NCBI GenBank assembly: GCA_949878575.1
Contig: CATLAX010000002.1
Location: 357,634-421,633 of the forward strand
From: an uncultured Alphaproteobacteria bacterium
GTDB lineage: Bacteria; Pseudomonadota; Alphaproteobacteria; Rs-D84
Direction of reading: 5' to 3'
Length of the DNA stretch: 64,000 nt
Made by a program: the position numbers and the translations under genes. Below, piece by piece: positions 1-61,801 of the stretch (position 1 is its first letter; each line of letters begins with the position of its first letter). The notes beneath the pieces are model-generated. The model worked only from the letters and a program-made list of their open reading frames with translations, was not told the origin of the DNA and did no database searches.

Positions 1-110
1 GTCGGCGCGGGCGCCTCCTCGCAATGACAGACGGACCAGACTCGTTGTCATTGCGAGCGTAGCGAAGCAATCCAATAAAAAACGCCCCGGGCGGGGCGTT
101 TTAGTGTTTT
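1..110. repeat. Nested palindromic element (inverted repeat CGCAATGACA...TGTCATTGCG) fused to a GC hairpin (AACGCCCCGGGCGGGGCGTT) flanked by A-run and T-run; acts as infB terminator; second copy at 45690-45790
   Basis: 10-bp perfect inverted repeat read directly; same arrangement and >80% similar sequence found again at 45690-45790; hairpin followed by T-run on minus strand just after infB stop. Confidence 0.6.
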
Positions 111-4106: not shown

Positions 4107-4272
4107 GCGTTTTCTCCTTATGTTGTTTTATGATGCCTTTATGATAAGGGCGGGGTCTTTCAACCCCGCCCTTAAAAAAACTTTTAAGAACAGTTTTATT
4201 ATGCGGTGCGAATCGTAAAAATGCAAGAAAAATTTGACGCTTAACCTTTTGGGCTTTATACTGGGCGTGATG

Positions 4273-9315: not shown

Positions 9316-9596
9316 CAATATACGAAAATCAATTAAAGTATCTGATACAGGACATGCACCGTATCGCGCATATCCGCGGGTTTAGCGATGCATTGCTGAT
9401 GCCGTTGGAATGGCGGCCGGCGGGCGGCATGACGCTGCTGCATGAATATGCGAACGGTGGCGCCGTTCTGGCCCCGGGCACGCACAGAACAACGATGAAT
9501 GATTTTATAAACGCATTCGGCGGATATATTGATGAAGAAAGCAACCTTAAATATTCCGCTGTCGCACAGCACGCACTACAAAGACTGGGGCGCTGA
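9312..9596 (+). CDS. Hypothetical protein (94 aa)
   Basis: ORF MTIYENQLKYLIQDMHRIAHIRGF…; start trimmed to the ATG overlapping rlmN stop; no recognisable family. Confidence 0.4.
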   Translation: MTIYENQLKYLIQDMHRIAHIRGFSDALLMPLEWRPAGGMTLLHEYANGGAVLAPGTHRTTMNDFINAFGGYIDEESNLKYSAVAQHALQRLGR

Positions 9597-9700
9597 TTAA
9601 AACAAATCCGCTTATGATTTATATAACACACCATAAATGCGGCCGGTTCGGTTATAATAAAGCGTTTGCAATATTGTTACCAGCGGATGCGTACGGAAAT

Positions 9701-9733
9701 AAAAAAATCCCCCGTTTGGGGGATTTTTTATTT
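9701..9733. terminator. Bidirectional rho-independent terminator (AAAAAAATCCCCCGTTTGGGGGATTTTTTATT)
   Basis: Perfect 8-bp GC stem with A-run upstream and T-run downstream; lies between convergent ORF 9312-9596 (+) and the HTH gene (-). Confidence 0.6.
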
Positions 9734-9952
9734 CCAGTACCGTAACAATTCCGGCGCCCACATCTGGATAACGCGGTATACCTGATACGGGGTCGGCGCA
9801 ATGCGCCCCTTTTCCATTTCATAGTACGCAATGCCGTGCACACCTATCTGGCGTCCGGCATGAAACGGGCTTAGTTTTGACCGGCGGCGGATTTTGTGCA
9901 TCCACAGCCCCAGGCTTTTATAAAATTCTTGTTCCGATTGTAATTTTTTCAT
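9728..9952 (-). CDS. Small XRE/Cro-type helix-turn-helix DNA-binding protein, copy 1 of a duplicated module
   Basis: 74-aa protein MKKLQSEQEFYKSLGLWMHKIRRRSKLSPFHAGRQIGVHGIAYYEMEKGRIAPTPYQ… with HTH_XRE-like signature (…Q..G…I..YE.G…P). The first ATG-GAG-GA of the tool ORF is better read as the GGAGGA RBS for the second ATG. An identical protein is encoded at 45239-45463. Confidence 0.7.
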   Translation of the reverse strand: MKKLQSEQEFYKSLGLWMHKIRRRSKLSPFHAGRQIGVHGIAYYEMEKGRIAPTPYQVYRVIQMWAPELLRYWK

Positions 9953-10169
9953 TTTTTCCTCCATGGTTTTTAGTTAATAAAAACACCGCCGTGATGAAAG
10001 GCGGTTGGAGGTTGATTACTACGAAAACGATAGTGCTGCTTATTCATATATATCACAGCCCTCCAACCAATTATGGAGTTAAAAAATGTTTTCAGAGGTA
10101 ATCACACCTCACACCGGTAATCGTCCGATGCGATAAAAACTATATCAAAATAAAATTAATATATGCAAA

Positions 10170-10200
10170 TAAAATCCCCCGTTTGGGGGGATTTTTATTA
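10170..10200. terminator. Hairpin terminator nearly identical to the one at 9701-9733 (AAAATCCCCCGTTTGGGGGGATTTTTATTA); terminates the large cysteine-rich gene
   Basis: Same GC stem/loop sequence as 9707-9724, A/T-run flanks; immediately after stop of ORF 10198-13686 (-). Confidence 0.55.
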
Positions 10201-13200
10201 GTCGGTCAGGGCCGTATCAATCAAATCGCCGTATTGCCCGACCATTTCGTTGCCGACCATACAGTTTAGATGGTTACCGACATCGGCCATAAAGGCGTCA
10301 TAGGCTTCTTTTTCAACCTTGTCCAGTTTGGCATCCTGGACGCTTTTGGTCGCCTGGTACGTCAGTATTCCACCAGCGGTGGCTGTAACCGCGCCACCAA
10401 CCAGATTTGTTATAGAACGGTTTCTGGCCGCTTTCTTTTTAGCGTCTTCATCGGGCTCCGCACTCAAACACGCCGCATGCAGTTTTTGCATAGCCGCATT
10501 AGCTGCCTTTTGCGCATCTTCAACAGCCTTTGACTTGGTGTTATAAGTTTTGTTCATCTCCGCCAAATTATCGTTATACGCTTTTACACTATCAGCATCA
10601 CTTTCGCATATCGAATATGTATACTGTACATCTGTCACATCCGAACGATCACAATCATCTGTTAAAGATATAGGTGTTCCTCTATGGTTCTTACAATTTT
10701 CAGGTTCGCCTTTTTTAAATTTAGCTCCACACGCAAACATACATGTTGTTTCTATCAGTGTAACTGTTTTGCCCGGATTTATAGCTTTTATTGTTGCTAT
10801 TCTGCGCGGATCTTGCAACGAAGTACAATTATCTGTTACGGTTTTTTCCTTGTCGGTTACAGCCGCCGGCATATCAGAAACAGCATTTTGATAGGCTATA
10901 TGTTTGTCGGTCACCTCACTGATAAGATCGGACATTTCCTCCTTTGCATCCCCTTTATTTTTGGAATACAGGTCTTTCAATTCACGGGCAGCTTTTACTG
11001 CACGAGTCATATAGGCGGATCTGTCTTCTGCCTTTGTTGATGTCATATAATTTGATGCGGCTGTTGTACATCTATTTACAATGTCACCGGCATCTTTAAT
11101 AGATGTGCTACCGTTTGTCCCCAGCAAACCGCCCAAGAAACCGCTGTTCTGCATTTTGTCCGTGGCAAAGCCACCCAGAACGCCGCTGCCAACCACGCCA
11201 GCCAGTGTCGTCCATGCTCTGGTGCGGCTGTTACCGCGGGCCGCATCACTGCGCGCGTCATCCGCAACCGAATTCGCCAGTTTTTCCAGCGCATCACCCG
11301 GTATCCATGAACCGCATGTAAACGCATCACCCGCCGCAAAGTATGCCGTTGACCAGTCAGAGCCCTTTGCTATAACGTCTTGGATCCGTTTGTCATCGGA
11401 CTGCAGCGTTACACGCACACGGCAGAACGATCCGTATATATCATTGCTGGCCGCGAACTGGTTCGGTTTCAGACCGGATACCGCATAACCCTTTGGCACC
11501 GTGTTTGATTTCAGCTTTACCCACAGGAACGTGCTGCCCAAATCATTTTTGCCCAGGATGCCGCCGTTGTTTGACGACATGCACTTGTTCTGTTCGCGTG
11601 TTAATTTCGCGTTGTACTTTGCCTGAGCCTCTTTTTCCAAATCATAAATCAGGTCTTTGAACAACGTGGACGCCGCCTGGGTTTCAACATACGTTGTGTA
11701 TGAAATCATCACAGGCTGGTCATAAATATTGCCCGCGGCATCAACCGTATAGCACACGCCCTGATCCGTGCCACCCTTTGACGTGCACAGCGCGTTGCCG
11801 TTTTCATCCACTGCCGCAACCTGTTCCGTGTTGGCGGTGATTGCCGTCGCGGCGCCGGCGTCAATCCAGCCTTCGCGTACGTTGCCGGCCCCGCCCCAGC
11901 TGGATGCGGACGAATTGTTCGCAATTTTCAACTTGTTGCGTTCAATGGCCAAATGTTCTTCGCATACTGACGCGGATTTTACCGTATCCAGGCACAGGCC
12001 AAGAACGATTGTGTAATCCAAAACGCCGCCCACCTTGTTCATGGATTTGTCAAAAGACGCCTCGCCGGTGTTGGTCAATGAAGAATACACATCCGTACGG
12101 TTACGATAGCAGTTCTGGTAATCCGCACCGCACATTGATTTTACGCAAGATGTCGCAACCGCCTGGCACTGGCGCTTCATCGTGGCGATGGCCGCGTCGC
12201 TGTAACTGCTGGCCAGGGTGGCGTTCAATGACGCAATCACGCCGATTGGGTCGTTGCCGCCTTCCTCATACTCAGGGAACAGCGTCGTAAACGCATCGTT
12301 GTTTATATATGTATAAGAATAGCTGCCCGTCTTGTTCGGGTTCGCCGCCGCATACTTGCAGTATGCGTCCGTGTTTACGACCGCCTCGCACCCGGTTTTC
12401 AATTCCGCGTACGTGGCGCTGTTGTTAATGGATTTGTCCTTGTTGCCGAACACCTGGCTGTAACAGGCCGCGCCGGAACCGGAACCGCAGATGCGCATTA
12501 CGCATGTCTTTATCGTGTCCGTGCATTTTTCCTTTGCCTTGGTGTCAAACTTGTCAACCAAATCGGCGATTTTTGCACGCATACCGGCATTCATGCGGGC
12601 GGCGTACGCCTCGTCGTAAATTTCTTCCTGATTATCCTCATCCTTTAACTGGGACGATGTCGGCATCTGGCCGTTGCCCAGAAACGTCGCATAGCAATAT
12701 TTGTTTGAACCGATTGTATCCATACAGGAATTCTTGATATATCCCGCGATGCTGGATTTGGATATAATATCCGTTCCAGCCAGCGACACCGGCAGGGCCG
12801 CAGTGCTTTCCGCCGTTGCGACGCCCTGATTAATTGACTCTACCAGGCTAACCGTCGTGGTTGTGCTGTTTTCATAGCATTTGTACGGATTTGTCGCACA
12901 CGCGTTCAAGATACACTGGTCAACAACCTTGTAACATGTTGAAACGGCGTTAACCGCGGCCAGCGCCGCGCCCTCTGCAATCATTTCGCCGATGCGCGAC
13001 GTGGCGGACGGCGTTGTGGACGTGTTCGCGGAACCGAACAGCTCAATCAATCCCTCTGACTGGCAGCGGGCCAGTGTGGAATCACAAAACACGCGCTGCT
13101 TTCTAAATTCCTTGTCCGTGGTACATAATTCAAAATCATTCCCGCAGACACTGTCCTTCTTTAAACATGCGGTATAGCGTTTTACACATGTGGACGTGTC

Positions 13201-13686
13201 GTATTTGTTGGATATGGCCGCACCGATAATTAACTGGCCCAGAACACTGCCGTCGGTCGGGTATGTGTAATCCGTAACCTCGCCATAACTGTTTTTAGAC
13301 GCAACCGTGGACAGCGCCGTGACAGTTCCCGTTCCAAACAGGCTGGATACTCCGGCGGTGCTGCACTGGGCCAGCGTGGACAAACACTGCGGCATTTTGC
13401 CGTGGAACAAAACCTTGGTCGTGCATTCTTCAAAGTCAGAGCCGCATGCGTCCCCACCCTTCATACAATTCGTGTACGCGTCAATGCACTCTGCATTCGC
13501 CAACAGGTTTGACGTCGTTGTCGTGGTGCCGCTGGTACTGGTGCCGGCGCCGGTAATGTATGACGTCATTGTCGGCATGCGCGACGACGCGGTGCCAATA
13601 ACACTGGGCCGCGCGGTCAGTGCATAAGATGCCTGAACCGTTGTCAAAACAGCCAGAAAACCAAACGATTTTGTAAAGAGACTCAT
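10198..13686 (-). CDS. Large (1162 aa) secreted cysteine-rich repeat protein, function unknown (candidate surface/adhesin or effector protein)
   Basis: N-terminal signal peptide (MSLFTKSFGFLAVLTTVQASYA), S/T-rich stretch, then two clear ~60-aa six-Cys repeats (C-x4-T-x-C-x6-C-x3-FE-x-CTT…C-x-STLA-x-C…LFG) and further paired-Cys modules; C-terminal Gly/Ala-rich hydrophobic segment. Confidence 0.7.
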   Translation of the reverse strand: MSLFTKSFGFLAVLTTVQASYALTARPSVIGTASSRMPTMTSYITGAGTSTSGTTTTTSNLLANAECIDAYTNCMKGGDACGSDFEECTTKVLFHGKMPQCLSTLAQCSTAGVSSLFGTGTVTALSTVASKNSYGEVTDYTYPTDGSVLGQLIIGAAISNKYDTSTCVKRYTACLKKDSVCGNDFELCTTDKEFRKQRVFCDSTLARCQSEGLIELFGSANTSTTPSATSRIGEMIAEGAALAAVNAVSTCYKVVDQCILNACATNPYKCYENSTTTTVSLVESINQGVATAESTAALPVSLAGTDIISKSSIAGYIKNSCMDTIGSNKYCYATFLGNGQMPTSSQLKDEDNQEEIYDEAYAARMNAGMRAKIADLVDKFDTKAKEKCTDTIKTCVMRICGSGSGAACYSQVFGNKDKSINNSATYAELKTGCEAVVNTDAYCKYAAANPNKTGSYSYTYINNDAFTTLFPEYEEGGNDPIGVIASLNATLASSYSDAAIATMKRQCQAVATSCVKSMCGADYQNCYRNRTDVYSSLTNTGEASFDKSMNKVGGVLDYTIVLGLCLDTVKSASVCEEHLAIERNKLKIANNSSASSWGGAGNVREGWIDAGAATAITANTEQVAAVDENGNALCTSKGGTDQGVCYTVDAAGNIYDQPVMISYTTYVETQAASTLFKDLIYDLEKEAQAKYNAKLTREQNKCMSSNNGGILGKNDLGSTFLWVKLKSNTVPKGYAVSGLKPNQFAASNDIYGSFCRVRVTLQSDDKRIQDVIAKGSDWSTAYFAAGDAFTCGSWIPGDALEKLANSVADDARSDAARGNSRTRAWTTLAGVVGSGVLGGFATDKMQNSGFLGGLLGTNGSTSIKDAGDIVNRCTTAASNYMTSTKAEDRSAYMTRAVKAARELKDLYSKNKGDAKEEMSDLISEVTDKHIAYQNAVSDMPAAVTDKEKTVTDNCTSLQDPRRIATIKAINPGKTVTLIETTCMFACGAKFKKGEPENCKNHRGTPISLTDDCDRSDVTDVQYTYSICESDADSVKAYNDNLAEMNKTYNTKSKAVEDAQKAANAAMQKLHAACLSAEPDEDAKKKAARNRSITNLVGGAVTATAGGILTYQATKSVQDAKLDKVEKEAYDAFMADVGNHLNCMVGNEMVGQYGDLIDTALTD

Positions 13687-44658: not shown

Positions 44659-45213
44659 ATTAAACCTTCATTTAACCGTTCCGCGACCCGCGACATGGGT
44701 CCGCGCATGAATAATCGCATTTTTGCAAAATCCGTACAGGTAATTAGCGACACAGGCCAAAATTTGGGTATCATGCCCACGCCCCAGGCGTTGGCGATGG
44801 CCATGGATGCAGGTCTGGATTTGGTGGAAATAAACGCCAACGGCACGCCGCCCGTGGTAAAAATAATGGATTACGGCAAATTCAAATACGACCAGAAAAA
44901 ACGTGCGAACGAGGCGCGCAAGAACCAGAAAACGGTTGAGATGAAGGAAGTATGGGTAAAGCCTTTTATTGAAGAAAACGATTTGAACATCAAAATGAAA
45001 AAGGTGTTTGAATTTTTAGACGGCGGAAACAAGGTTAAGATTGCGGTCATGACGCGCGGGTCAAAGAAAGTACTGGCCCGGGGCAAGGATGCGGTGCCGG
45101 AACTGTTTGCACGCATTATGGAAATTGTTGGTGAACGCGGAACATTGGAATCCAAATCAAAACCGGATGAACGCACCAAGTCAATAATTGTCGCCCCGAC
45201 AAAGGCGAAATAA
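44659..45213 (+). CDS. infC: Translation initiation factor IF-3 with non-canonical ATT (AUU) start
   Basis: IF-3 N- and C-domains (…VKIMDYGKFKYDQKK…); AAGGAG RBS at 44647-44652, 6-nt spacer, then in-frame ATT at 44659; the tool ORF 44569 is a spurious upstream extension. Confidence 0.85.
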   Translation: MKPSFNRSATRDMGPRMNNRIFAKSVQVISDTGQNLGIMPTPQALAMAMDAGLDLVEINANGTPPVVKIMDYGKFKYDQKKRANEARKNQKTVEMKEVWVKPFIEENDLNIKMKKVFEFLDGGNKVKIAVMTRGSKKVLARGKDAVPELFARIMEIVGERGTLESKSKPDERTKSIIVAPTKAK

Positions 45214-45220
45214 AAAAATC

Positions 45221-45250
45221 CCCCGAACGGGGGATTTTTTATTTCCAGTA
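45221..45250. terminator. Bidirectional terminator (AAAAAAATCCCCCGAACGGGGGATTTTTTATT); a loop variant of the 9701-9733 hairpin
   Basis: Same stem as copy 1 with a different loop; lies between infC (+) and HTH copy 2 (-). Confidence 0.6.
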
Positions 45251-45463
45251 CCGTAACAATTCCGGCGCCCACATCTGGATAACGCGGTATACCTGATACG
45301 GGGTCGGTGCAATACGCCCTTTTTCCATTTCATAATACGCAATGCCGTGCACACCTATCTGGCGTCCGGCATGAAACGGGCTTAGTTTTGACCGGCGGCG
45401 GATTTTGTGCATCCACAGCCCCAGGCTTTTATAAAATTCTTGTTCCGATTGTAATTTTTTCAT
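45239..45463 (-). CDS. Small XRE-type HTH protein, copy 2 (identical protein to 9728-9952)
   Basis: Identical 78/74-aa translation; nt identity about 97-98% including about 200 bp of 5' leader. Confidence 0.7.
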   Translation of the reverse strand: MKKLQSEQEFYKSLGLWMHKIRRRSKLSPFHAGRQIGVHGIAYYEMEKGRIAPTPYQVYRVIQMWAPELLRYWK

Positions 45464-45689
45464 TTTTTCCTCCATGTTTTTTTAACTAAAAACACCGCCG
45501 TGATTAAAGGCGGTTGGAGGTTGATTACTACAAGATAATAGTGCTGTTTATTTATGTATATCACAGCCCTCCAACCGGTTGTGGAGTTTTTATATCTTGG
45601 AGGTAATCACACCTCACACCGGTAATCGTCCGGTGCGATGCGAATTATACCGGATTATTTTCGTGTTTGCAAATAATTACTGGATTGCC

Positions 45690-45790
45690 ACGGTCGCTAT
45701 GCTCCCTCGCAATGACAGTCGTACCGGAAATCATTGTCATTGCGAACGCAAGTGAAGCAATCCAGTAAAAAACGCCCCGGGCTGGGATTT
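45690..45790. repeat. Second copy of the nested palindromic element (outer IR ACTGGATTGC…GCAATCCAGT, inner IR CGCAATGACA…TGTCATTGCG) plus GC hairpin
   Basis: Inverted repeats read directly; homologous to 1-110; immediately downstream (minus strand) of the radical-SAM gene stop. Confidence 0.55.
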
Positions 45791-46782
45791 TATCGCTCGT
45801 TAAAACGCCATCCCTGTAACAGACGGGCGCGCGTTTCTTCGCGCCACGTGGCCTTTACCAAATCCACACGGGTATACAGCAACGACTTTGGTCCGTGTGC
45901 GGTATGCCATTTTGTTGAAATCTTGCGTCCTGAATTTTCGCCCAGCGTTACCCGCCCCGCACTGTCAAACGCAATCAAAGACATACCGTCGGCGGATAAA
46001 AACTGAAACTGTGGAAAATCAGAATGATGCGCCCATTCCATGCCACGCGCACGGCCGCCGTCAAGCAACGTTCCTTTTGAATAGTGCAATAAAATCTGGT
46101 CATCGACGATTGGCAACGAACGCATATTTGCCAAATCACCGACCAAAACTTCGTCTATAGTGTGACCACTTGAGCGTAACTGTTCCAATAATGCCGGAAA
46201 CATATCAACATGATTGTTAAAACCGGAAATATGAATAACAACGTTGGTATTTGGCATTTTGGCCAGGCGCGATATCACCGCGGCATTATTTTCTAATGCA
46301 TTTTTATGATACCTGTCCAGCGACAGCGAAATCTGCAATGAATACGGTTTGTGTGACGATATTACATGATGCAAATCCTGCAATATACTCTCGCCAAATC
46401 CGGCACGCACCCACGCGGCGTTGGTCTTTATATCGGTACCAATGCCCAAATCAAGACTGTGGTTCAATAATGTCGGCACATAATCGGCCGGTCCAAAGCG
46501 GTATGCCGACATAATTTCCCCGCCTGTAAACACAACATTATTTGAAAATGACTGGTCGGAATGCGCCTGGTCCAAATAAGAGCATATGGTACGGGCCGGA
46601 ATAAATGTCCGAGGATTCTTCGGCCCCGAACATTCACAGCAATGAGGGCACCGGTACCAACAATAATTTGTTGTTTTAAACACCAATACATACTTCGTAT
46701 GACGCAGTATGTTCCCCATGGGGAAATGCCGGTCGCGCCAGTTTAGGTATTTATAAATAATGCTCACAGGTATAAAATTCAT
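45790..46782 (-). CDS. Radical SAM domain protein, function unknown (lower GC than neighbours)
   Basis: CxxxCxxC motif NYCWYRCPHC and glycine-rich VVFTGGEI motif; 330 aa; AT-rich codon usage by eye. Confidence 0.7.
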   Translation of the reverse strand: MNFIPVSIIYKYLNWRDRHFPMGNILRHTKYVLVFKTTNYCWYRCPHCCECSGPKNPRTFIPARTICSYLDQAHSDQSFSNNVVFTGGEIMSAYRFGPADYVPTLLNHSLDLGIGTDIKTNAAWVRAGFGESILQDLHHVISSHKPYSLQISLSLDRYHKNALENNAAVISRLAKMPNTNVVIHISGFNNHVDMFPALLEQLRSSGHTIDEVLVGDLANMRSLPIVDDQILLHYSKGTLLDGGRARGMEWAHHSDFPQFQFLSADGMSLIAFDSAGRVTLGENSGRKISTKWHTAHGPKSLLYTRVDLVKATWREETRARLLQGWRFNER

Positions 46783-61600: not shown

Positions 61601-61801
61601 TATGGATTTTCATCATACCCCGGCCGCCCGATTTATTGTGGCCTGTTCCACCCGCGTGGCGCGTCGTGACATGTACAATCTCCATAATAAAAAACCATCG
61701 GAAACATTTCAGATGGTTGGATTTTGATTTTCGTGGCGGATGTTTAAGTCCGACAGCGGAATTCCCGCTGCAATATTAATTGTACTTTGAAATATTTAAT
61801 A

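Follow-up and report, generated by a model that had tools for sequence, protein, structure and literature searches.

A duplicated XRE-fold regulator gene and its structured, pseudoknotted leader RNA in an uncultured Alphaproteobacteria bacterium

The DNA analyzed here was a stretch of 64,000 nucleotides (nt) from an uncultured Alphaproteobacteria bacterium (GenBank assembly GCA_949878575.1, contig CATLAX010000002.1, forward-strand positions 357,634 to 421,633), which is referred to below as the window. The window carries a small unit in two copies, which are direct repeats: copy A at about 9696-10170 and copy B at about 45207-45680. The gene of both copies is on the minus strand, and in both cases the parts follow the same order on that strand, namely, a promoter-like site of the sigma-70 type, a leader RNA of about 155 nt with an intrinsic terminator, a spacer of about 25 nt, a Shine-Dalgarno (SD) sequence, a 74-codon open reading frame (ORF), and a bidirectional terminator (Table 1). 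An earlier note on this DNA had described the unit as a duplicated gene for an XRE-type helix-turn-helix (HTH) protein with a conserved 5' leader. The leader was there as described; what that note overlooked was that it is a structured RNA, which is better conserved than the protein, and that this RNA is what is really being repeated. This RNA represents a family without an Rfam match, and its structure and its association with the ORF were well supported.

The extent of the duplication was taken from an alignment of positions 9501-10345 with 45021-45865. A block of about 470 nt was common to both copies and was bordered by unrelated sequence on both sides; the homology began near the transcription start and stopped just past the 3' terminator, and the promoter regions could not be aligned. 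With a repeat finder, the best-matching segment was 9696-9971 versus 45207-45482 (276 nt, 97% identity), which spans the ORF and the 3' terminator, whereas the leader was recovered as three segments with 91%, 88%, and 90% identity and small indels between them. In total, the two leaders, of about 180 nt each, differed by 23 substitutions and 6 gap columns over 184 columns, which corresponds to an identity of about 85 to 90%. The ORFs differed at four positions, and all four differences were synonymous (46 synonymous and 176 nonsynonymous sites; synonymous divergence [dS] of about 0.09); the probability of such an outcome was about 0.002. The two 74-amino-acid (aa) proteins are therefore identical. 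A start at an upstream ATG would give 78 aa (ORFs 9728-9964 and 45239-45475), and the start chosen was the one preceded by GGAGG-N5.

These results indicated that the window duplication is real, yet not very recent, and that both copies are under purifying selection. The earlier note had proposed a recent, near-perfect duplication (97 to 98%). That level of identity applied to the half containing the ORF and the 3' terminator but not to the full length, because the leaders have diverged and the promoters could not be aligned; these two features and the dS value also spoke against a very recent event. Its other structural claims fared better: the proteins are identical, the module is bounded by terminators, and it is a self-contained regulator module that was duplicated whole and has related modules at other loci of related genomes. 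The repeat was far longer than expected by chance and was the sole long repeat in the window, since all other repeat families found by the repeat finder were at most 55 nt long and mostly consisted of hairpins that resembled terminators or repetitive extragenic palindromes (REPs). A covariance-model search with the filters off yielded no further full leader copy in the window.

The leader begins with two hairpins, P1 and P2, which are followed by an unpaired A/U-rich linker that contains an invariant CUCCA box. The long-range helix P3, formed by GGUUGGAGG and CCUCCAACC, then closes a three-way junction with P4 and P5, and the terminator comes last. The loop of P2 forms a pseudoknot with the P5/P3 junction, and the loop of P1 may contact the loop of the terminator. 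We drew this structure by eye on an 18-sequence MAFFT alignment (A3). Standard pairs occupied 94.2% of the pair cells in A3, compared to 31 to 52% in controls with slid partners, and 22 pairs were changed on both sides, compared to 9.4 in shuffles; none of the 500 shuffles reached 22. Each of the four central pseudoknot pairs showed double changes in 5 to 7 sequences and had no unpaired cells, and the variants included UGAUU/AAUCA, UAGAU/AUCUA, UAGAA/UUCUA, UCAAA/UUUGA, UAACA/UGUUA, UAAGA/UCUUA, and UAAAG/CUUUA. The candidate loop-loop contact was weaker (76.7% paired), with a few covarying cases (GUGAU/AUCAC, GAUUA/UAAUC, UGAUG/CAUCA, and GAGUU/AAUUC). Double changes were present in 26 of the 33 pairs, 3 of which belonged to P3, in a 22-sequence alignment that was fitted to the covariance model and hence leans towards the proposed structure. 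RNAalifold recovered P1 to P5 and the terminator independently.

Further support came from the window itself and from divergent copies of the RNA. The copy A and copy B leaders differed at 2 of 88 paired positions versus 21 of 69 unpaired positions (Fisher p = 9e-7), which indicated that both are still under structural constraint, and both folded far better than shuffled controls (see the z-scores in Table 1). In P1, G-U pairs were tolerated on the ORF strand only, and the RNA strand is therefore the ORF strand. The covariance model, R1, located divergent copies in related loci (L013 2505-2675; L015 413-596 and 673-829; L009 3779-3962; L029 922-1089), and compensatory changes in P3 were found in these copies, such as GGUCGGGG/CCCCGACC. 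A long alternative helix, in which the 5' arm and loop of P2 would pair with the junction and the P3 3' arm in place of the pseudoknot, was disfavored because the covariation was between the two arms of P2, with no change in the 3' arm of P3 (UGGGU/ACCCA in L029; also L021 and L016).

No Rfam family matched the leader at the gathering thresholds, and two tRNAs were the window's only matches. When the leader region was compared with the 4227 models of Rfam 15 at an E value of ≤10, the only matches were of the terminator type and far below threshold. Literature searches by sequence or topic gave no match to the conserved leader sequences, and there was no leader match among the first 200 of the 408 supplementary files of Fremin & Bhatt 2021 (PMC8040213). 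That paper names HTH-XRE genes as common neighbors of novel structured RNAs, in generic terms only.

Hairpin-preserving changes could also keep DNA cruciforms, and other palindromic repeats adjoin modules in this lineage. We weighed the idea that the leader is a DNA-level repeat instead of a functional RNA, either a palindrome resembling a REP or a miniature inverted-repeat transposable element or an array of operators to which the HTH protein binds. This idea appeared very improbable. As noted above, G-U pairs were tolerated on one strand only; in addition, the element has a fixed position and orientation between promoter and SD in most copies examined, and the pairs that covary include those of the pseudoknot, in which a loop meets a remote junction, something for which a DNA palindrome has no need. 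A link between pseudoknot sequence and protein type was also rejected, and with it a protein-specific operator: the proteins at L015 and L034 are 99% identical, yet the pseudoknots are UAGAA and UAAGA, respectively. Conversely, unrelated RNA-associated proteins have the pseudoknot UGAUU in common.

Table 1. Positions of the parts of copies A and B in the window
Feature	Positions	Strand	Evidence or description
Copy A promoter-like region	10139..10169	-	TTGCAT, 18-nt spacer, TATAGT; read from sequence
Copy A leader RNA, 157 nt	9978..10134	-	cmsearch 157.5 bits; fold z-score -4.8
Copy A P1	10131-10111	-	leader helix
Copy A P2	10110-10095	-	leader helix
Copy A CUCCA box	10078-10074	-	
Copy A P3, 5' arm	10068-10060	-	
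Copy A P4	10059-10035	-	
Copy A P5	10034-10018	-	
Copy A pseudoknot strand at junction	10017-10012	-	partner of P2 loop; other side of the pseudoknot at 10109-10100
Copy A P3, 3' arm	10011-10003	-	
Copy A leader terminator hairpin	10004-9986	-	
Copy A leader terminator U-tract	9985-9979	-	
Copy A SD, GGAGG	9958..9962	-	complementary to CUCCA box and P3 3' arm
Copy A ORF, 74-aa XRE-fold HTH protein (predicted fold)	9728..9952	-	translation MKKLQSEQEFY...
Copy A 3' terminator, bidirectional	9701..9732		TCCCCC-loop-GGGGGA between A and T runs
Terminator of 1162-aa gene	10168..10199		91% copy of copy A 3' terminator
Copy B promoter	45644..45672	-	TTGCAA, 17-nt spacer, TATAAT; promoter scan 10/12 matches
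Copy B leader RNA, 153 nt	45487..45639	-	helices as in copy A; cmsearch 158.5 bits; fold z-score -6.7
Copy B ORF	45239..45463	-	protein identical to that of copy A; 4 synonymous differences, at codons 43, 48, 50, and 52
Copy B 3' terminator, bidirectional	45212..45243		common with convergent infC

The promoter-like site of copy A, which runs into the T-tract of the terminator upstream of it, failed a consensus scan and was weaker than that of copy B. The two sites lie at an equal distance from the RNA start, and the TTGCAA-N17-TATAAT arrangement of copy B was also found at most of the related loci. As a consequence of the similarity between the terminator of the upstream 1162-aa gene and the 3' terminator of copy A, direct repeats of about 30 nt flank copy A; these repeats are terminator hairpins and are not present at copy B. 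The loop sequences of the 3' terminators (CAAACG in copy A, 9709-9723; CGTTCG in copy B, 45220-45234) show a reverse-complement type of relation, as if the loop had been flipped. Just upstream of the copy B promoter (about 45680-45790) lies a REP-like nested palindrome (ctggattgc..cgcaatgaca..tgtcattgcg..gcaatccag), which recurs at window positions 61-101 and at L009 2460-2590 and L010 340-380.

Two other places in the window gave partial matches to R1. At 61687-61774 (minus strand), a relative of the leader scored 30 bits; it has P1/P2-like hairpins, an A-rich linker with AUCCAACC, a terminator, an SD, and a 19-codon ORF, and it is without the P3-P5 domain. This element adjoins a tRNA gene, and a promoter-like TTGCAA..TACAAT extends up to about 61806. 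At 4132-4202 (plus strand), a pair of neighboring hairpins, located between convergent or divergent genes, gave a 20-bit partial match to P1-P2 and is probably a terminator-type look-alike.

A DNA pattern built from the leader matched 17 metagenome loci and no viral contigs. At the loci examined, the RNA lay on the same strand as, and just 5' of, an SD and an ORF, usually at 45 to 56 nt from the end of P3. The ORFs behind the RNA encode divergent proteins of 60 to 106 aa, most of which had weak XRE-type Pfam matches; they were 23 to 72% identical and could be chained into one loose superfamily plus two outliers. In L021, L024, and the divergent copy of L009, the gene behind the RNA instead encodes a Cys-rich or secreted protein. 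The metagenome assembly JAAGKN01 contained four RNA copies on three contigs. Orthologs of the window protein (62 to 68% protein identity) were located in differing gene neighborhoods (SpeE and ProRS in L007 and L011, other genes in L009); the leader at these loci was nearly intact, with compensatory changes visible, and the upstream genes were unrelated. The association was also observed when the protein was the starting point. A profile built from RNA-associated ORFs of the "YYGNAMR" group gave only 10 clusters, and the RNA was just upstream of the gene in all four homolog contigs with enough upstream sequence (L029, L031, L034, and L035).

Two further arrangements were found at the related loci. 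In the first, L011 5600-6330 and L027 950-1680 represented one chromosomal locus in near-identical strains, where the flanks and the whole leader were about 99 to 100% identical. The SD, HTH ORF, and 3' terminator had been swapped for a poorly aligning allele (37% protein identity), with breakpoints just past the leader U-tract and just past the 3' terminator; hence, the ORF is a hypervariable cassette behind a constant leader. In the second, the RNA occurred in tandem pairs (L013 2304-2675, minus strand; L015 413-829, plus strand; L034 9305-9721, minus strand), and in each pair the upstream member lacked an ORF, although it possessed a promoter-like site and a terminator of its own.

The window protein had no Pfam match at an E value of ≤0.01, and its score against HTH_31 (15.5 bits) was below the curated cut-off of 27. 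Among four family members, HTH_31 was detected in all four (best E = 1.9e-4) and HTH_3 in two (E = 1.1e-5), near or below the curated thresholds; the paralog at L014 passed the thresholds of both HTH_3 and HTH_31 (30.6 and 26.6 bits, respectively). An AlphaFold2 model of the window protein (confidence score [pLDDT] of 82) contained five helices arranged as a bundle, with the helix-turn-helix at helices 2 and 3. Nearly all of the top 50 Foldseek matches to PDB structures had the XRE fold (TM scores of 0.6 to 0.7, 12 to 24% identity), and the top matches included HipB, C.BclI, ClgR, P22 c2, and HigA, as well as C.AhdI and C.EcoT38IS. These predictions support an XRE fold, as the earlier note had suggested, but they support membership in no specific XRE subfamily. 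The family is very rare: there were four clusters among 5.8 billion proteins, and 21 representatives at an E value of ≤1e-3 among 1.84 billion proteins, only 3 of which were at ≤1e-10. A protein-pattern scan of GTDB genomes gave one species representative only, which is labeled "uncultured Alphaproteobacteria bacterium." In addition, five proteins of 467 to 780 aa (P0010, P0013, P0014, P0015, and P0025) contain three to five repeats of a domain that matches the 74-aa HTH profile.

In its predicted five-helix fold and its length, the protein is like the small XRE/Cro-C1 regulators of about 70 to 80 aa, such as HipB, the C proteins, ClgR, and the N-terminal domain of P22 c2. It differs from these regulators in that its family is very rare and has no toxin, restriction-modification, or phage partner. 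The presence of HipB, HigA, C.BclI, C.AhdI, and C.EcoT38IS among the top Foldseek matches, together with a weak MqsA_antitoxin match in a paralog, might suggest a type II antitoxin (HigA, HipB, or MqsA-like) or a restriction-modification C protein whose partner had been overlooked. This is the explanation to which we gave the least credence. The HTH ORF is the only one that copies A and B have in common, the repeat stops at the terminators, and the adjoining genes differ at every locus; moreover, the structural matches reflect the generic XRE fold. No toxin gene was found beside the HTH gene, and no restriction endonuclease or methyltransferase gene was found beside the window copies, whose neighbors encode IF3, the radical S-adenosylmethionine (SAM) protein, RlmN, and the 1162-aa protein.

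As the earlier note had stated, a different gene precedes each copy on the strand of the module: the 1162-aa protein gene (10198-13686, minus strand) in the case of copy A, the other neighbor of which encodes RlmN, and a 330-aa radical-SAM gene (45790-46782, minus strand) in the case of copy B, which has IF3 on its other side. The 1162-aa protein has a signal-peptide-like N terminus and a Cys content of 3.8%. It matched no Pfam, NCBIfam, or PADLOC family and had no detectable similarity to the Cys-rich proteins behind the RNA elsewhere. The 330-aa protein gave weak matches, far below the cut-offs, to prokaryotic viperin (pVip, E = 3.9e-6) and to peptide-modifying radical-SAM families; these matches probably reflect generic radical-SAM similarity. 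The flanking genes are mostly housekeeping genes, which encode IF3, UDG, RlmN, SurA, LptD, a MacB-type efflux system, ProRS, DnaE, and SecA. The window encodes LptD, SurA, OmpA-type, and MacB/OEP proteins, and the organism therefore has an outer membrane.

The earlier note had gone on to propose that the module travels with, or is recruited to, acquired accessory, defense, or anti-defense genes and regulates them. A mobile cassette of this kind would fit a modular unit that is found at different loci, the terminator repeats that flank copy A, the position of copy A behind a Cys-rich secreted protein without a known family, and the three loci at which the RNA stands directly before Cys-rich or secreted proteins. 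Nevertheless, we regard this proposal as very doubtful, and neither the travel with cargo nor the role in defense was borne out. Most of the neighbors are core genes, and no homology was found among the upstream "cargo" genes of different species. The unit ends are a promoter and a terminator, and no transposase or integrase was found at the copies, which agrees with the earlier statement that the copies share no transposase, integrase, or toxin ORF. The HTH protein had no match in PADLOC, PHROGs, or NCBIfam, the module DNA had no blastn match in phage and plasmid collections and was absent from viral collections, and there was no composition anomaly near either copy.

We lean, with moderate confidence, towards a leader that acts in cis as a transcription and translation attenuator or a riboswitch-like element and that was duplicated together with its regulator gene. 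This reading is built on the complementary segments in the sequence. Segments of the GAGG type occur three times, in the 5' arm of P2, in that of P3 (GGUUGGAGG), and in the SD. Segments of the CCUC type also occur three times, in the 3' arm of P2, in the CUCCA(AC) box within the linker, and in the 3' arm of P3 (CCUCCAACC). In the minimum-energy fold of copy A, the SD paired with the CUCCA linker, and the same duplex is possible at all loci. The CC(G) at the end of the P3 3' arm doubled as the first bases of the terminator stem in all of the copies that were read. The P3/terminator overlap, the two possible partners of the CUCCA box, and the support that the pseudoknot would lend to P3 suggest a multi-state switch. 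In such a switch, the CUCCA(AC) box would pair with either the P3 5' arm or the SD, and the pseudoknot would stabilize the P3-closed state. The leader would thereby gate the read-through of RNA polymerase past the leader terminator into the regulator gene and would decide whether the SD is accessible for the downstream ORF.

The proposed switch resembles attenuators of the 1:2 / 2:3 / 3:4 type and T-box leaders in its four serial, mutually complementary segments (the CUCCAAC box, GGUUGGAGG, CCUCCAACC-GCC, and GGCGG with the U-tract) and their alternative pairings. P3 would correspond to the 2:3 helix, here in the form of a pseudoknot-stabilized three-way junction. In contrast to those systems, the leader has no conserved leader peptide, T-box sequence, specifier loop, or Rfam T-box match. 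Leader-peptide attenuation was rejected, as an AUG-initiated 25-codon ORF in the P4 loop was present in copy A only and copy B has AUA at that start. Pairing of the 5' arm of P1 with the 3' arm of the terminator, as an antiterminator, was also rejected; it fitted about half of the sequences, and the variation broke pairs (CA, CU, and AA) without compensation.

Several points weigh against a cis-acting switch. The overlap between P3 and the terminator is only 2 to 3 nt, so the full terminator could form alongside a P3 of 7 bp and mutual exclusion would be weak. Neither the CUCCA box nor the SD varies, which places their pairing beyond a covariation test. The metagenome loci were gathered with a pattern that fixed P3 and part of the P4 loop, and the invariance of these parts in the pattern-found loci is partly due to that selection. 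All of the aligned sequences came from one lineage, and their shared ancestry inflates the shuffle statistics given above. The copy A promoter-like site is weak, the genes that would be controlled hint little at a ligand or a protein partner, and the orphan tandem copies with a promoter-like site and a terminator (L013 2505-2675 and L015 413-596) fit a stand-alone small RNA (sRNA) equally well.

The leader shares a number of properties with terminator-coupled and orphan riboswitches, such as c-di-GMP-II and the "Cis-reg" motifs of Rfam. It is a covarying structured domain of 100 to 200 nt between a promoter and an ORF, it has a multi-helix junction with a pseudoknot, and an intrinsic terminator and an SD-complementary box lie directly downstream. 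Like these riboswitches, it also stands before several unrelated genes per genome, sometimes in tandem. On the other hand, it has no similarity in sequence or structure to any of the Rfam models, the genes behind it encode small regulators and secreted proteins and not metabolic or transport functions, and its aptamer-like helix overlaps the terminator only slightly, as described above. We tentatively entertain, as a possibility of lower probability than cis-acting attenuation in general, that the leader is a new riboswitch class for a small molecule or second messenger. Such a class would co-control the hypervariable XRE regulators and Cys-rich surface or secreted proteins, and the pseudoknot and three-way junction would form the pocket.

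Sibling sRNAs of alphaproteobacteria, such as CcsR/"cuckoo" and AbcR-type RNAs, are multi-copy and sometimes tandem, have their own promoter and terminator and a C/U-rich anti-SD-like motif, and have a small ORF adjacent to them; the leader is alike in these respects. This likeness raises the alternative that the RNA of about 155 nt is a trans-acting sRNA in which CUCCA serves as an anti-SD seed on target mRNAs, with the XRE gene expressed by occasional read-through or encoding a regulator of the sRNA promoter. The RNA has a near-consensus promoter at one end and an intrinsic terminator at the other, the invariant CUCCA is unpaired within an A/U-rich linker, individual assemblies contain several copies, and some orphan copies in tandem have no ORF. 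The truncated unit at 61687-61774, which has only P1 and P2 ahead of its terminator, SD, and 19-codon ORF and has no larger gene, also speaks for this alternative. We judge a trans-acting sRNA to be rather unlikely, however. In most copies, the SD and ORF follow the U-tract by about 25 to 35 nt, which is too short for a separate promoter. The RNA precedes non-HTH genes in the same layout, and five helices with a pseudoknot exceed what is typical of seed-plus-terminator sRNAs. The leader further differs from the CcsR/"cuckoo" and AbcR-type RNAs in its larger size and pseudoknot, in that its CCUCC motifs are mostly inside helices, in the position of the ORF downstream on one transcript with the RNA, and in having no Rfam match to those families. 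The preferred cis-acting leader and an sRNA function could also coexist.

Divergent paralogs are found behind similar leaders, and the whole unit of leader, ORF, and terminator has therefore been duplicated repeatedly in the lineage. Constraint on the RNA persists after each such event, and the protein diverges fast; the window pair is the youngest duplicate pair that we saw. The hypervariable XRE ORFs behind a constant leader, with allelic replacement at one locus and 23 to 40% identity between paralogs, suggest diversifying selection on the regulators. A diversifying pattern of that kind is normally seen in immunity or specificity determinants.

A further observation concerned the joining of the two copies. 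In three independent assemblies (L002 4800-5400, L004 1100-1650, and L006 1170-1586), the left flank and leader of copy B were joined to variants of the copy A ORF. The right flank of copy A followed in L002 and L004, and L006 ended within the ORF. The join in L002 and L004 equals a loss of window positions 9965-45475 (35.5 kb), a region that consists mostly of core genes. Either the direct repeats recombined, or the assembly took a wrong path over an identical stretch of about 170 nt. Repeats such as these may cause chimeric joins in metagenome assemblies.

The source lineage consists of uncultured gut-type Alphaproteobacteria-like bacteria. If the proposed role of the leader is correct, what looked like a duplicated "protein cassette" would be an RNA-centered unit, and a pseudoknotted regulatory RNA family would exist in these poorly known gut bacteria. 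The leader would then be an orphan riboswitch or attenuator candidate with an unusual set of genes, which encode regulators and secreted proteins and not metabolic functions, and this set of genes could point to a signaling ligand.

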